A stretch of DNA of 64,000 nt. It comes from Candidatus Sumerlaeota bacterium. Lineage in GTDB: Bacteria; Sumerlaeota; Sumerlaeia; JAFGJS01. Under the pieces are notes generated by a model, which was given only the letters and a program-made list of their open reading frames with translations, made no database searches and was not told the DNA's origin. Made by a program: the position numbers and the translations under genes. The stretch is from assembly GCA_016928995.1 (NCBI GenBank), contig JAFGJS010000037.1:5895-69894 (forward strand), read 5' to 3'. Positions 21,306 through 38,182 of the stretch are shown piece by piece (position 1 is the stretch's first letter; every line of letters begins with the position of its first letter).

Positions 21306-21405
21306 CCGTTAGACTCGCTTCCTATCAGGCGGGCCTAAGCCCGCAATGTTGTTTGAGATCCGGATGATCGCGGCGAGCTGCGGCTCGCTTCACGAGTTTG
21401 GCGGT

Positions 21406-34599: not shown

Positions 34600-34689
34600 G
34601 CGGTGATCGAATGCCTTGACATGGATGGATCATTATGATTTGTTATGTGAAAAAAGGGGACTTCCGAGGCAATGCCAGCTTATACGTTA

Positions 34690-34750
34690 TTGATCGCGCA
34701 GAGACGCAGAGGATTACAATAACATCAAATCTCTGCGTCTCCGCGTGAAA
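34690..34750. promoter_or_regulatory. Long hairpin (about 12-bp perfect stem GAGACGCAGAG with a 19-nt AT-rich loop) at the left edge of the low-GC islet.
   Basis: GCGCAGAGACGCAGAGG attacaataacatcaaat CTCTGCGTCTCCGCG, with no T-run after it. Confidence 0.4.
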
Positions 34751-34837
34751 GAAATATTCTATCGGGAAAACGAGTGTGGAGGAACTGCGGAGTATTAAGC
34801 GTTTTTCAATAGTAATTTGAAAGGCAAAGGAAATGAC

Positions 34838-35611
34838 ATGAGAAAAAAAACGATTATACTTATCCTCATTCTGATGGGATCGTTATCCGCATACGCGGAA
34901 GACATGCAGAAGTATTTGAGAGATACACAGGTTTTGGCTCGGCAAGGGAAGCACCAGGAAGCTCTTGAACGGTATATCTGGTTTCATAACCATGCCCTTG
35001 AGCATGAACCGGCCGCCATGTATGGAGTGCGCCTGTCGTTTGCCCTGGAATACTGGAGGCAACTTGGCGAGGTCTATCCTCCTGCGTTAGCCGCGCTGAA
35101 GAAGACGAGAGACGACAAAACAGAGCTAATGGAAAAAGGGAAGGGCAATCGTGAGTTATTTCATGACGTCCTGGCCCTTAACCGAACGCTGAATAATAGC
35201 CGCAAGACAGTCGATCTGTTTCAAAAACTCGATCAGGAACAGGAAGAGTTGGCGAAGCAATGCTGGGATATCGCCGAAGAAACAGTAATTGATGCGAAAG
35301 AGTATGAACTTGCAGGAAAGTATATCGGAGATCCAATACGCGCATTTGACAAAGTAAAAGAGACATATGACGAAATGAAAGCGATGGATGATGAAGAAAG
35401 CATGGGGGTGGAATTTAAAACATTCTATCAGAATAGCTTTGTCGAGGACGCGTTGCGATTGATCAAAGTGTCGCTGGCGCTGGATAACGCAGAGGCCGCC
35501 AGAAAAGTACAAGCGAAGGCATTGGCCGTTCTTGACGACAAGCGCCTCCATGACTGCGTGCCTAAACAGACAAAGGAAGAGGCGCAGCAGAAGGATTCAT
35601 CGGACAAGTAA
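34838..35611 (+). CDS. Secreted alpha-helical hypothetical protein in a low-GC context.
   Basis: Signal peptide MRKKTIILILILMGSLSAYA. The body is K/E-rich and helical, and the GC content is visibly lower than the flanks. Confidence 0.55.
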   Translation: MRKKTIILILILMGSLSAYAEDMQKYLRDTQVLARQGKHQEALERYIWFHNHALEHEPAAMYGVRLSFALEYWRQLGEVYPPALAALKKTRDDKTELMEKGKGNRELFHDVLALNRTLNNSRKTVDLFQKLDQEQEELAKQCWDIAEETVIDAKEYELAGKYIGDPIRAFDKVKETYDEMKAMDDEESMGVEFKTFYQNSFVEDALRLIKVSLALDNAEAARKVQAKALAVLDDKRLHDCVPKQTKEEAQQKDSSDK

Positions 35612-35628
35612 AAAAATCAGAAAGGAAC

Positions 35629-36300
35629 ATGATGAAACCTGCAATCACATCGGAAGCCGTCGTTCAAACATTGGAGAAACTATACGCCGATGCAGCGACA
35701 AAGCATCATTTTCCTAGAACTAAGAAGGAAAATTCCCCCATCGACCATACGGATGAAAAAGCGTTCTACAAATCCATGAGCCACGCTTACATGGCGGTGA
35801 ACCGCGAATTCGGCAACCTGCTTTATGCTCTCGCTCGCGCGTCCAGGGCGACAACGGTTGTCGAGTTTGGTACATCATTCGGCATATCGACCATTTATCT
35901 GGCCGCCGCCGTTAAAGACAATGGCGGCGGGAAAGTGGTCAGCACCGAATTCATCCCGGAAAAGGCGGAACAGGCGAAGCGGAATCTCGCGGAGGCCGGA
36001 TTGGCGGAATTCGTGGAAATCCGCGTGGGTGATGCGCTGGAAACGCTGAAAAACAATCCCGTGCAAAGTATCGATTTTGTCATGCTCGACGGCGCCAAGA
36101 GCCTTTACTTTGATGTGTTCAAAATTCTTGAGCCTGCGATGAAATCGGGGGCCATCATCGCCAGCGATAACACCGACAGCCCGGACCTGCAAAACTTTCT
36201 GGATTATGTGCGCTTTCCTGAAAACGGCTACATCACTTCCCCCATTTCCACGCACGGAGGACCGGGAGGAAGAGGACATGAAATCACGGTTAAAATCTAG
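35629..36300 (+). CDS. Class I SAM-dependent O-methyltransferase (family 3, caffeoyl-CoA OMT-like).
   Basis: VVEFGTSFGISTIYLAAAV ... VSTEFIPEKAEQAKRNLAEAGL ... FVMLDGAKSLY matches the fold. The gene is low-GC. Confidence 0.8.
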   Translation: MMKPAITSEAVVQTLEKLYADAATKHHFPRTKKENSPIDHTDEKAFYKSMSHAYMAVNREFGNLLYALARASRATTVVEFGTSFGISTIYLAAAVKDNGGGKVVSTEFIPEKAEQAKRNLAEAGLAEFVEIRVGDALETLKNNPVQSIDFVMLDGAKSLYFDVFKILEPAMKSGAIIASDNTDSPDLQNFLDYVRFPENGYITSPISTHGGPGGRGHEITVKI

Positions 36301-36329
36301 TGTCATGTCACGCTTGAAAAGTCGTTATG

Positions 36330-36402
36330 TAGGGTGGGCCTTGGCCCACCATGTTGTTTGAATTGCCGCACATCTTGGTGGGCCAAGGCCCCCCCTACAT
36401 CT
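36330..36402. repeat. Nested palindrome: a 23-bp inverted repeat whose arms are themselves palindromes (GGTGGGCCTTGGCCCACC / GGTGGGCCAAGGCCCCCC); REP/BIME-like or a bidirectional terminator.
   Basis: TGTAGGGTGGGCCTTGGCCCACC, a 26-nt spacer, then GGTGGGCCAAGGCCCCCCCTACA. The first hairpin is followed by ATGTTGTTTG, so it is plausibly the terminator of the O-methyltransferase gene. Confidence 0.5.
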
Positions 36403-36511
36403 TTGTGCATCCCTTTTCATCTGCGAACTTCCGTCACCGGCTGTCATGATTTTTGCGGGGCAAAAATCCCGCCAGCCTTGGGTTGTTTTGTGCGTTCACC
36501 CAGGCCGGCGC

Positions 36512-36780
36512 TCACGGCCGCTTTGCGGCCTACGCTCTGGCCTGGGCTGTGATGCATAGCGCTTTCAGCGCTGATATGGAGCCATGATTAAAGAGATTTG
36601 AAATCGTGATTACATCCAGAGCGTAACGTTCGGTCGTTTTGTGGCGTTTTGCGTTCGTTGCAGTGAACCAAACCGACAACCGCGTTGCGAAACGCGCCGC
36701 TGGCGCCTTTCGCTGCTCTGGTCTGGGCTGAATTACGCAGCGCTTTCAGAGCTGATAAGAAGCCATGAGTAAAGAGATGA
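36512..36780 (+). repeat. Two copies of a roughly 65-nt direct repeat (about 80% identical) in a hairpin-rich non-coding stretch.
   Basis: Copy 1 (about 36531-36595): GCTCTGGCCTGGGCTGTGATGCATAGCGCTTTCAGCGCTGATATGGAGCCATGATTAAAGAGAT. Copy 2 (about 36715-36778): GCTCTGGTCTGGGCTGAATTACGCAGCGCTTTCAGAGCTGATAAGAAGCCATGAGTAAAGAGAT. Extra hairpins lie at 36448 (9-bp stem), 36515 and 36672 (GCGA tetraloop). Confidence 0.5.
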
Positions 36781-36838
36781 CCACCGTGGATGAAATGAAA
36801 TGCGCCCGTTTTTGTGCAAAATCTGAACGCTGGACTTG
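36764..36838 (+). CDS. Speculative 24-aa mini-ORF MSKEMTTVDEMKCARFCAKSERWT (CxxxC), starting inside repeat copy 2.
   Basis: It runs ATG to TGA in frame. The degenerate copy 1 starts the same way but stops after 5 codons. I saw no ribosome-binding site, so confidence is low. Confidence 0.15.
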
Positions 36839-36928
36839 ACCGCGCGGCGCTTCTTGATATATCCTTTTTCTTAGTCTGCAACCACATCGTGGTCTGCGGT
36901 TTTTCAACTTCAGGGCAGGGGTTCCTTT

Positions 36929-38182
36929 GTGCAGGTTGTTGAAGACACGCAAAGCCTGTGGCTGGGAGTGGCCACGCACCTGATGGTCTTTGAGCCGGGT
37001 CCGCGCGGCGAGGTGGCTTATCGTCTGGGCACGCGGCCGGTTGAGCGCGCGTGGCTCGGCGAGGAGTATCACGGGCGGCAGATCCCCGCAATTGTCCAGC
37101 CTTCCTACGCCGCTTTTTTCGATCCGAACGACGATCAGCTGATCGGGCTGTTTTTCGAGCGCGGCGTGGACGATATGTTTGTTTTTTGCGGCCGGCGCTG
37201 GGGCGACGTGGCCGTCGATACGGGCGAGGAGTTTGAGACGGATCGTGCAGCGGACCTGATCCACTCCATGAACACGTCCGTGCTGGTGCATGACGCGCCG
37301 CCGACGGTGAGTATGCGTTTTCTGATGAATATGCATAACATCCGGCACTTCGCGCCGGAGGTCATACGCGCCATTCGCCATTCGAGCCAGCTGAACTACC
37401 TGGAGTTTCGTTGCGAGGCGGCGACGGGGCTGTTCCAGCGTTGCCAGTTGGAGGTGCTGCATAAACACACGCAACATCTGCTCGACACGGCGGAGTTCGA
37501 CGTTTTCCCCGTCATCTGGCCGGTGCGACCGCAGACCGGCGAGGAAATCCGCCGCGCCGCAGCCGCTCGCCGCGCGCCCAAACCGCAGCCCGCCAAACCA
37601 GTCAAACCGCTGACGCCGACGTTGCATCTCGATCCGCTGGAGATGACGCGCGCGATTCACGATGAGCCGGAGCTCAGCCGGCGCTGGCAGATGATCGTGC
37701 AGAACCTGGAGCAGGCCGACGCCGGACGCACCTACCACTTGCTGTCGGATTTCACCCCGTTGATCGCCGGGCATATCAAGGCCTGGCCCGCGCGGCGGTT
37801 GATTAAAATCTTTGGCCAGCAGGCGGGTTTCACGCTAGTCGGCGTGTGTAAGGATCTGACGAATGAAAAAGTGCTGCAATTGGCTGATATCGTGGCGGGA
37901 CGCGAGAGCCTGATCGACTGGCTCGATGAACGCGAGACGGACCGCTTGATGCGGACTGATTTTGACGCGCTGCAACAGCTGACGCCGGATAGCGCGCGCG
38001 AATGGCTGAATGTCTCGCCGGGCTGTTCTTCCGAGTGGATTCGCAAAGTCTGGCGCCGGCTGCTGGCGTTCATCAACGCCGACTTCGGCCGCGGCGGCAG
38101 CGAAAAGGCGATCCATCAGAAGAAGGATAAAATTGCTAAGCGCCTGCTGGCCGCGCGCGACTGCCTGATCCAGGCCGATTGA
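36929..38182 (+). CDS. Hypothetical protein (417 aa) with a Pro/Ala/Lys-rich linker and a C-terminal degenerate J-domain-like segment lacking HPD.
   Basis: The C-terminus (LNVSPGCSSEWIRKVWRRLLAFINADFGRGGSEKAIHQKKDKIAKRLLAARDCL) has J-domain helix II/III spacing, but HPD is replaced by NAD. Confidence 0.5.
   Translation: MQVVEDTQSLWLGVATHLMVFEPGPRGEVAYRLGTRPVERAWLGEEYHGRQIPAIVQPSYAAFFDPNDDQLIGLFFERGVDDMFVFCGRRWGDVAVDTGEEFETDRAADLIHSMNTSVLVHDAPPTVSMRFLMNMHNIRHFAPEVIRAIRHSSQLNYLEFRCEAATGLFQRCQLEVLHKHTQHLLDTAEFDVFPVIWPVRPQTGEEIRRAAAARRAPKPQPAKPVKPLTPTLHLDPLEMTRAIHDEPELSRRWQMIVQNLEQADAGRTYHLLSDFTPLIAGHIKAWPARRLIKIFGQQAGFTLVGVCKDLTNEKVLQLADIVAGRESLIDWLDERETDRLMRTDFDALQQLTPDSAREWLNVSPGCSSEWIRKVWRRLLAFINADFGRGGSEKAIHQKKDKIAKRLLAARDCLIQAD

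Follow-up and report, generated by a model that had tools for sequence, protein, structure and literature searches.

Structure of the gap

The 64-kb stretch of Candidatus Sumerlaeota bacterium contig JAFGJS010000037.1 analysed here (the window) contains a gene-free gap of 628 nucleotides (nt) at positions 36301-36928, the longest in the window, bounded upstream by an O-methyltransferase gene (35629-36300, plus strand; Pfam Methyltransf_3) and downstream by a gene for a 417-amino-acid (aa) hypothetical protein (36929-38182, plus strand; GTG start). The GenBank accessions of the two flanking proteins, MBN1515588.1 and MBN1515589.1 (Candidatus Sumerlaeota bacterium), are consecutive, and the gap is therefore without an annotated coding sequence (CDS) in GenBank. 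Twenty-one open reading frames (ORFs) of at least 20 codons overlap it, and none of the ORFs in its six frames is coding-like. The gap holds a series of hairpins, among which two tandem units of two hairpins each, related to the Rfam family Acido-Lenti-1 (RF01687), are our subject here.

A preliminary description, made from the sequence alone, had called this stretch highly structured and non-coding, and folding bears out the structure: the whole gap folds better than shuffled sequence (z-score -4.7; none of 20 shuffles was as good), as does the region of the first repeat copy (z -3.2), while the isolated 64-nt repeat units fold no better than shuffles (z -0.3 and -0.9). The description placed the start of the structured stretch at 36403, which misses the strongest structure of the gap, an inverted doublet at 36327-36400. 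The perfect 9-bp hairpin that it listed is present at 36448-36468 (GATTTTTGC-ggg-GCAAAAATC), as is GGCCGC-TTT-GCGGCC at 36516-36530; its GCGA-tetraloop hairpin (CGCGTT-GCGA-AACGCG) also exists and lies at 36681-36696 rather than at about 36672.

The gap further contains a direct repeat, previously put at about 65 nt in two copies. Its copies are 64 nt long (36534-36597 and 36715-36778), lie on the plus strand in the same orientation, 181 nt apart, and are identical at 53 of 64 bases (83%); there is no third copy in the window, and the repeat core occurred in no shuffle. The repeat corresponds to the 3' two-thirds, the better-conserved part, of two units that follow one another in the same orientation and have two hairpins each. 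Unit 1, a complete element, spans 36497-36576 (plus strand). In its hairpin 1, CCCAGGCCGGCGC (36499-36511) pairs with GCTCTGGCCTGGG (36534-36546); this hairpin has a loop of the CUCACG type, GCGCTCACGG, as in the RF01687 seeds, and carries a 31-nt insertion that holds the inner hairpin at 36516-36530. A linker, CTGTGATGCAT, then leads to hairpin 2, AGCGCT-TTC-AGCGCT (36558-36572). Repeat copy 1 thus begins with the 3' arm of hairpin 1, runs on through the linker and hairpin 2, and closes with a tail of 25 nt, GATATGGAGCCATGATTAAAGAGAT. Unit 2 (36671-36757, plus strand) is a degraded element: in the predicted fold its hairpin 1 is weak and irregular, its inner hairpin is a different one (GCGAAACGCGCC-GCT-GGCGCCTTTCGC, 36687-36713), and after the linker its hairpin 2 has one mismatch.

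A structurally conserved family in metagenomes

None of the genome, metagenome and viral contig collections contained a match to a strict 24-base pattern taken from the repeat's 3' half, and AGCGCTTTCAGNGCTGATA matched genome contigs 15 times, which is about chance level and included no convincing family member. A loosened pattern spanning the 5' half of the repeat, CTGGGCTG-N6-10-AGCGCTTTCAG, matched 101 loci from soil metagenomes, about half of them clearly not by chance: in these, a 5' arm CCCAGGGC lies just upstream of the pattern and is complementary to GCCCTGGG, so that a hairpin forms, and hairpin 2 is closed by bases after the pattern, which the pattern itself did not require. In several of the loci an inner hairpin is inserted into hairpin 1, as in the window. 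The architecture of the family is hairpin 1 (CCCAGG...CCTGGG), GCTG, a linker of about 9 nt and hairpin 2 (AGCGC-TTTCA-GCGCT).

We built a covariance model (R1) from 36 such metagenome units, which yielded 111 matches in the 101 loci, often several per locus. Forty units in the same loci were independent of the search pattern; of these, 35 complete ones make up an alignment (A3) from which a second model (R2) was built. In A3, 93.5% of cells are paired, as compared to 27-51% when partners are slid, compensatory changes occur in 10 of the 14 pairs, and on four of five measures none of 500 shuffles reached the observed values. The compensatory pairs are found in hairpin 1 (for example CCCAGGGC/GCCCTGGG, CCCGGGGC/GCCCCGGG and CCTGGCGC/GCGCCAGG) as well as in hairpin 2 (AACGCC/GGCGTT, GCGCC/GGCGC and GGGCC/GGCCC). 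The structure therefore covaries in units that the search pattern had not selected.

Applied to the 64 kb, R2 ranked 36497-36576 first (39.2 bits, expectation value (E) 2.7e-9) and 36671-36757 second, at a borderline 16.4 bits (E 0.005), the next match scoring 11 bits; with R1 the two units scored 49.8 and 25.7 bits. The E-values of all custom-built models used here (R1, R2 and R3, below) are rough. The 5' arm of unit 1, CACCCAGGCCGGCGCTC, which lies outside both the search pattern and the local repeat, is identical at 16 of 17 positions to metagenome locus L041. As judged from sequence and predicted pairing, unit 1 is a complete member of a wider Acido-Lenti-1-like family and unit 2 is a decayed paralogue.

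Comparison with the family also bears on how the pair arose. The 25-nt tail lies outside the family unit, relatives' sequences varying freely downstream of hairpin 2; a local tandem duplication is thus the best account of the window pair. A T-rich 20-nt block of the upstream flanks recurs at 36477-36496 and 36628-36648 (p about 0.006), which fits a duplicated unit of about 150-180 nt; the downstream flanks of the repeat copies have no residual similarity (p 0.5). Unit 2 was probably made by this duplication, which would also have copied the roughly 25 nt of flanking tail.

Relation to Acido-Lenti-1

At gathering thresholds, the whole window matched Rfam at one distant tRNA only. The preliminary description would have counted the lack of an Rfam match against itself, and it did lack one in a formal sense; the true lead proved to be a match below threshold, since a permissive scan of the gap returned RF01687 at 12.9 bits for copy 1 and 11.3 bits for copy 2. 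We rebuilt a model of this family (R3) from its 45 published 2010 seeds, independently of the window. R3 detects the metagenome units at E 3e-8 to 0.03, and among them those of the transposase loci described below at E 3e-7 to 0.03. With Rfam's own model, units of loci L076 and L081 exceed the RF01687 gathering score. In the window, the best R3 match is copy 1 at 13.7 bits (E 0.08), with copy 2 at 9.0 bits (E 1.1). A search of the transposase-flanking loci against all 4227 Rfam families gave no match at E up to 0.1; their units were detected once a single-family model was used.

The RF01687 architecture is an 8-bp hairpin 1, GCU, about 12 nt of linker and a hairpin 2 of 5-6 bp whose loop is of the YUUCR type. 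Every one of these parts is present in unit 1, where the 31-nt insertion sits in the loop of hairpin 1; in unit 2, hairpin 1 is poor. By the Rfam criterion the window copies are not members of RF01687; their sequence and architecture place them in the wider family that contains it.

Related units flank RayT-type transposase genes

The metagenome units are extragenic: open frames of 200 or more codons enclose just 11 of 70 of them, whereas such frames make up 72% of the bases in the loci. At two loci, L085 (2239-3273) and L066 (9299-10101), units bracket on both sides a gene with the Pfam domain Y1_Tnp (IS200-like), encoding 176 and 151 aa, respectively, and R3 detects these flanking units. By tblastn, a Y1 gene also adjoins units in L016, L019, L042, L043, L067 (also recovered as L084, L086 and L107) and L077. 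Many close homologues of these transposases carry the name "REP element-mobilizing transposase RayT" from the Joint Genome Institute (JGI), after the repetitive extragenic palindromic (REP) elements; one NCBI homologue record comes from a Pyrinomonadaceae metagenome-assembled genome.

The arrangement of the units in these metagenomes varies. Some units form head-to-head doublets, the two being 76-118 nt apart (242 nt in L016), tandem arrays occur in L081, L105 and L019, and in L076 (2345-2416) two opposite-strand units have a single hairpin 1 in common, which matches what has been described as a long palindromic REP singlet left after excision of the core of a REPIN, an inverted doublet of REPs. 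In described systems, REPINs typically flank the REP-associated tyrosine transposases (RAYTs); tandem arrays are frequent there, long palindromic singlets are on record, and REPs that stand singly represent decaying remnants (PMC3337134).

In 8 of 12 loci the outer units are followed, at a distance of 51-75 nt, by a conserved box, GCTGYTATACTCAC (L016, L042, L067, L070, L077 and, at two sites, L085; a variant is present in L066). The box looks like an extended -10 element, and the genes that come after it differ, that for the transposase being one of them; it could be an outward-facing promoter borne by the element, or else the element's true end. The window has a poor counterpart only, TGATATATC, at 36854-36862.

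Interpretation of the gap

Together, these data suggest that the gap is a small cluster of REP-type repeats in which the two units form an orphan tandem pair of Acido-Lenti-1-like elements beside a separate, GTAGGG-headed inverted doublet, and hence ordinary repetitive DNA; we put the probability of this reading at roughly 0.7. The pair is orphan because no Y1 transposase is encoded in the window. Most likely, then, the window feature is not a new regulatory RNA or micro-protein gene. Four candidate explanations had been offered at the outset, and "decayed mobile-element ends" came closest, given that the unit family flanks RayT-type Y1 genes in metagenomic relatives.

HUH transposases act on hairpins in single-stranded DNA. 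In related bacteria a small HUH/Y1 transposase of the RayT type has the units on its flanks and presumably mobilises them; by analogy, it would recognise the unit hairpins in single-stranded DNA. This mobilisation is suggested by the loci of the relatives together with what is known of HUH enzymes, and for the window genome itself it would hold by analogy. As for the neighbouring genes, if the cluster is co-transcribed with the upstream methyltransferase gene, the role of its hairpins would not go beyond 3' stabilisation or termination.

Several observations weigh against this interpretation. A tblastn search found no Y1 transposase in the 64-kb window, and the pair consists of only two copies there, in the same orientation and with no minus-strand partner by R1 or R2. 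Both copies fall well below the RF01687 gathering score (12.9 and 11.3 as compared to 37 bits) and are marginal with the independent seed model; their membership is therefore transitive, resting on a chain through the metagenome units. The tail is common to both window copies and absent from the family, so that its conservation is unexplained unless the duplication is recent. Finally, the transposases of the relatives score below the NCBIfam cut-offs for IS200 (54.4 as compared to 55) and for RayT (27.9 as compared to 80), and their sub-class is therefore not settled by sequence.

Alternative explanations

The strongest competing account is that the units are a tandem pair of genes whose products are small RNAs acting in trans, in keeping with the typing of Acido-Lenti-1 in Rfam. 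The covarying structure agrees with it, as do the rating of the motif by Weinberg et al. (2010) as a probable RNA that is not cis-regulatory (PMC2864571), the same-orientation arrays typical of the seeds, and the hairpin with a T-rich stretch that follows each window unit (36619-36655 and 36876-36904). Covariation of hairpins, however, is equally expected for the single-stranded DNA substrates of HUH transposases, and the head-to-head doublets, the overlapping opposite-strand units of L076 and the positions beside Y1 genes are hallmarks of REPs; moreover, no promoter-like site precedes either unit. The earlier suggestion of a duplicated small RNA (sRNA) agrees with the Rfam label of the related family RF01687; the independent transcript that it supposes would be hypothetical, and we regard this account as unlikely. 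It is distinctly less probable still that the region is a cis-acting leader or attenuator of the 417-aa gene, with alternative hairpins and the mini-ORF as leader peptide, as had also been proposed. A terminator-like hairpin with five Ts does stop 25 nt short of the GTG start, alternative pairing partners exist for GCTCTGG, and the C/A difference at 36569/36750, as read from the sequence, favours a different helix in each copy. These features are outweighed by the comparative evidence: upstream of the gene for the sole homologue of the 417-aa protein (40% identity), the sequence is unrelated and AT-rich and lacks the repeat, and the family adjoins many unrelated genes. The failure of the isolated 64-nt units to fold better than shuffles and the lack of an attenuator-typical codon run in the mini-ORF point the same way.

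The preliminary description had correctly noted an ORF of 24 codons, MSKEMTTVDEMKCARFCAKSERWT (36765-36839, plus strand), that opens in copy 2, and a five-codon version of it in copy 1 (36584-36601, plus strand; ATG ATT AAA GAG ATT TGA). That the longer one encodes a real micro-protein, or the precursor of a ribosomally synthesised and post-translationally modified peptide (RiPP), would accord with its open frame and ATG start, its CxxxC and KxxxW motifs, and the methyltransferase, unknown 417-aa protein and MATE exporter nearby. Its ATG and first four codons, however, lie inside the duplicated tail, and the counterpart in copy 1 meets a stop codon after five codons. A Shine-Dalgarno sequence is lacking at 5-9 nt (AAGAAG comes to within 3 nt of the ATG), Pfam and NCBIfam give no match, and the ORF has neither a homologue nor an annotated CDS in GenBank. 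ORFs of that size are also common in the gap, and the 417-aa protein lacks a cysteine motif of the radical-SAM type. For the reasons of start position, ribosome binding, homology and annotation, the ORF is probably spurious, a by-product of the duplicated tail and not a gene; the idea of a leader or precursor micropeptide accordingly finds no support, and we consider a functional peptide highly improbable. We hold equally little belief in a neutral local duplication of arbitrary intergenic DNA whose likeness to the family is coincidental. The copies are indeed only two, are adjacent and have in common a tail that the family lacks, but coincidence does not sit well with an R2 E-value of 2.7e-9 for copy 1, or with the match of its 5' arm and GCTCAC loop motif, both outside the local repeat and the search pattern. 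Copy 2 also matches the type II hammerhead ribozyme (RF02276) at 36685-36768 with 21.1 bits, GCGAAAC, CUGAUAAG and AGCC being aligned to the consensus. We rejected a ribozyme or its relic as a reading with next to no chance of being right: the score compares with a gathering score of 37, the catalytic G8 of the core is A in both copies (CUGAUAA and CUGAUAU, the intact core being CUGAUGA), the GAAA of copy 2 is buried in the stable 12-pair hairpin of GCGAAACGCGCC and GGCGCCTTTCGC, and copy 1 has no positioned GAAA.

Other structures and neighbouring genes

The inverted doublet at 36327-36400 begins 27 nt past the methyltransferase stop codon and has 31-nt arms that are 90% complementary, separated by a 12-nt spacer (-54.5 kcal/mol, z -8.0). 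Each arm consists of GTAGGG followed by its own palindrome, GGTGGGCC-TT-GGCCCACC, so that the doublet can be folded as a single long hairpin or as two small ones. In the permissive Rfam scan it gave only spurious, palindrome-driven matches to microRNA models. It resembles a GTAG-headed REPIN and may alternatively be the terminator or 3' stabiliser of the methyltransferase mRNA. A doublet similar to it, GTAGGGCGGGCCTTGGCCCGCC, is found on a viral contig (L007, 3440-3505). Elsewhere in the window, GGCGGGCCTAAGCCCGC-AATGTTGTTTGA at 21328-21356 resembles GGTGGGCCTTGGCCCACC-ATGTTGTTTGA at 36333-36361, with a compensatory stem change; both lie downstream of plus-strand genes, and their likeness may reflect a common terminator or a second small repeat family.

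Between the doublet and unit 1, an imperfect hairpin with 18-nt arms (36439-36477, plus strand) encloses the perfect 9-bp hairpin and is directly followed by the T-rich block at 36477-36496; the terminator scan placed a terminator-like site at 36473-36485. At the far end of the gap, folding found a terminator-like element (36876-36904, plus strand) in which TTTTT comes after a 10-pair stem-loop that has one bulge (36876-36899); the consensus terminator scan had not listed this element. From its predicted fold, this hairpin with its run of Ts may terminate read-through.

The 417-aa protein matches no Pfam or NCBIfam family, and among 5.8 billion sequences it has a sole homologue, encoded on a 2-kb contig on which synteny is uninformative. 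The two proteins have in common a C-terminal stretch, KVWRR.L.FINAD.GRG..EKAIHQKKD.IAKRL, after a proline-rich linker. On the other side of the gap, local alignments of the methyltransferase with its nearest relatives reach no more than about 65% identity, the named relatives coming from other phyla; the only close relative is its own sequence as assembled from the same sample. The nearest named relatives belong to Verrucomicrobiota and Bdellovibrio. Across 34600-36300, which holds a 264-aa ORF and the methyltransferase gene, the GC content is 0.40-0.52, as compared to about 0.60 or more on either side. This segment, together with the repeat cluster, may have been horizontally acquired.

Independent Logan contigs from the same sample break in the gap: one (L003) ends at 36466, in the 9-bp hairpin, and another (L001) starts at 36720, at the start of repeat copy 2. 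Such breaks would fit repeats or population heterogeneity at these sites.

Significance and comparison with known systems

On the reading that we prefer, an orphan pair of REP-type units, the hairpins, the repeat and the mini-ORF of the window call for no new riboswitch, sRNA pair or micropeptide. The pair adds a divergent representative to a kind of element that is already known, and the significance of the window feature is low to modest. The wider result concerns the family: an RNA listed in Rfam as an sRNA of unknown function since 2010 is found, in metagenomic relatives, to bracket RayT-type genes in the manner of a REP or REPIN. There is, in our estimate, an even chance that Acido-Lenti-1 and its wider relatives are not trans-acting RNAs at all but REP/REPIN elements that partner a clade of RayT-type Y1 transposases, in a two-hairpin class that spans Acidobacteriota, Lentisphaerota, Planctomycetota and Sumerlaeota and of which the Sumerlaeota copy with its nested hairpin is a lineage-specific variant having its own RAYT elsewhere in the genome. 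If this were confirmed in the seed genomes, RF01687 should be re-typed, and a two-hairpin class of REP from little-studied phyla would be added to a field that has been built almost entirely on Pseudomonas and enterobacteria.

Acido-Lenti-1 resembles the window units in its hairpin 1 of CC..GG type with a CUCACG-type loop, in the GCU and the linker of about 12 nt that follow, in a hairpin 2 with a C-UUC-R loop, and in its occurrence as multiple copies in same-orientation tandem arrays (the period in the window being 181 nt). The published seed alignment contains such arrays with periods of 69-200 nt, and second hairpins of the type GUGCU-UUC-AGCAC (PMC2864571). The window differs from the seeds in the 31-nt insertion, bearing its own hairpin, within hairpin 1 of unit 1, in the sequence of its linker, and in its host, Candidatus Sumerlaeota as opposed to Acidobacteria and Lentisphaerae. 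Rfam types the family as "Gene; sRNA"; the genomic context described above speaks instead for a DNA repeat of the REP type.

With the REP/REPIN-RAYT systems (Bertels and Rainey 2011; PMC3116915, PMC3337134) the units have in common that they are short, extragenic, imperfect palindromes; in the relatives they further form inverted doublets with a spacer and tandem arrays, and lie on both sides of a gene for an HUH/Y1 protein of about 150 aa. They differ in that a unit comprises two hairpins, not one, that the window pair is a direct tandem and not an inverted doublet, and that the window is without a RAYT. The other system to be compared is that of the IS200/IS605 insertion sequences (IS), with their subterminal hairpins and miniature derivatives: as there, a Y1 HUH gene is bracketed by hairpins at the relatives' loci. 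Unlike in IS200/IS605, there are far more hairpin units than transposase genes, doublets stand on both sides of the gene, and the flanking genes vary among loci whose transposases are 80-97% identical, as compared across loci. Such variation in the flanking genes would be nearer to the pattern of RAYTs than to that of a multicopy IS.

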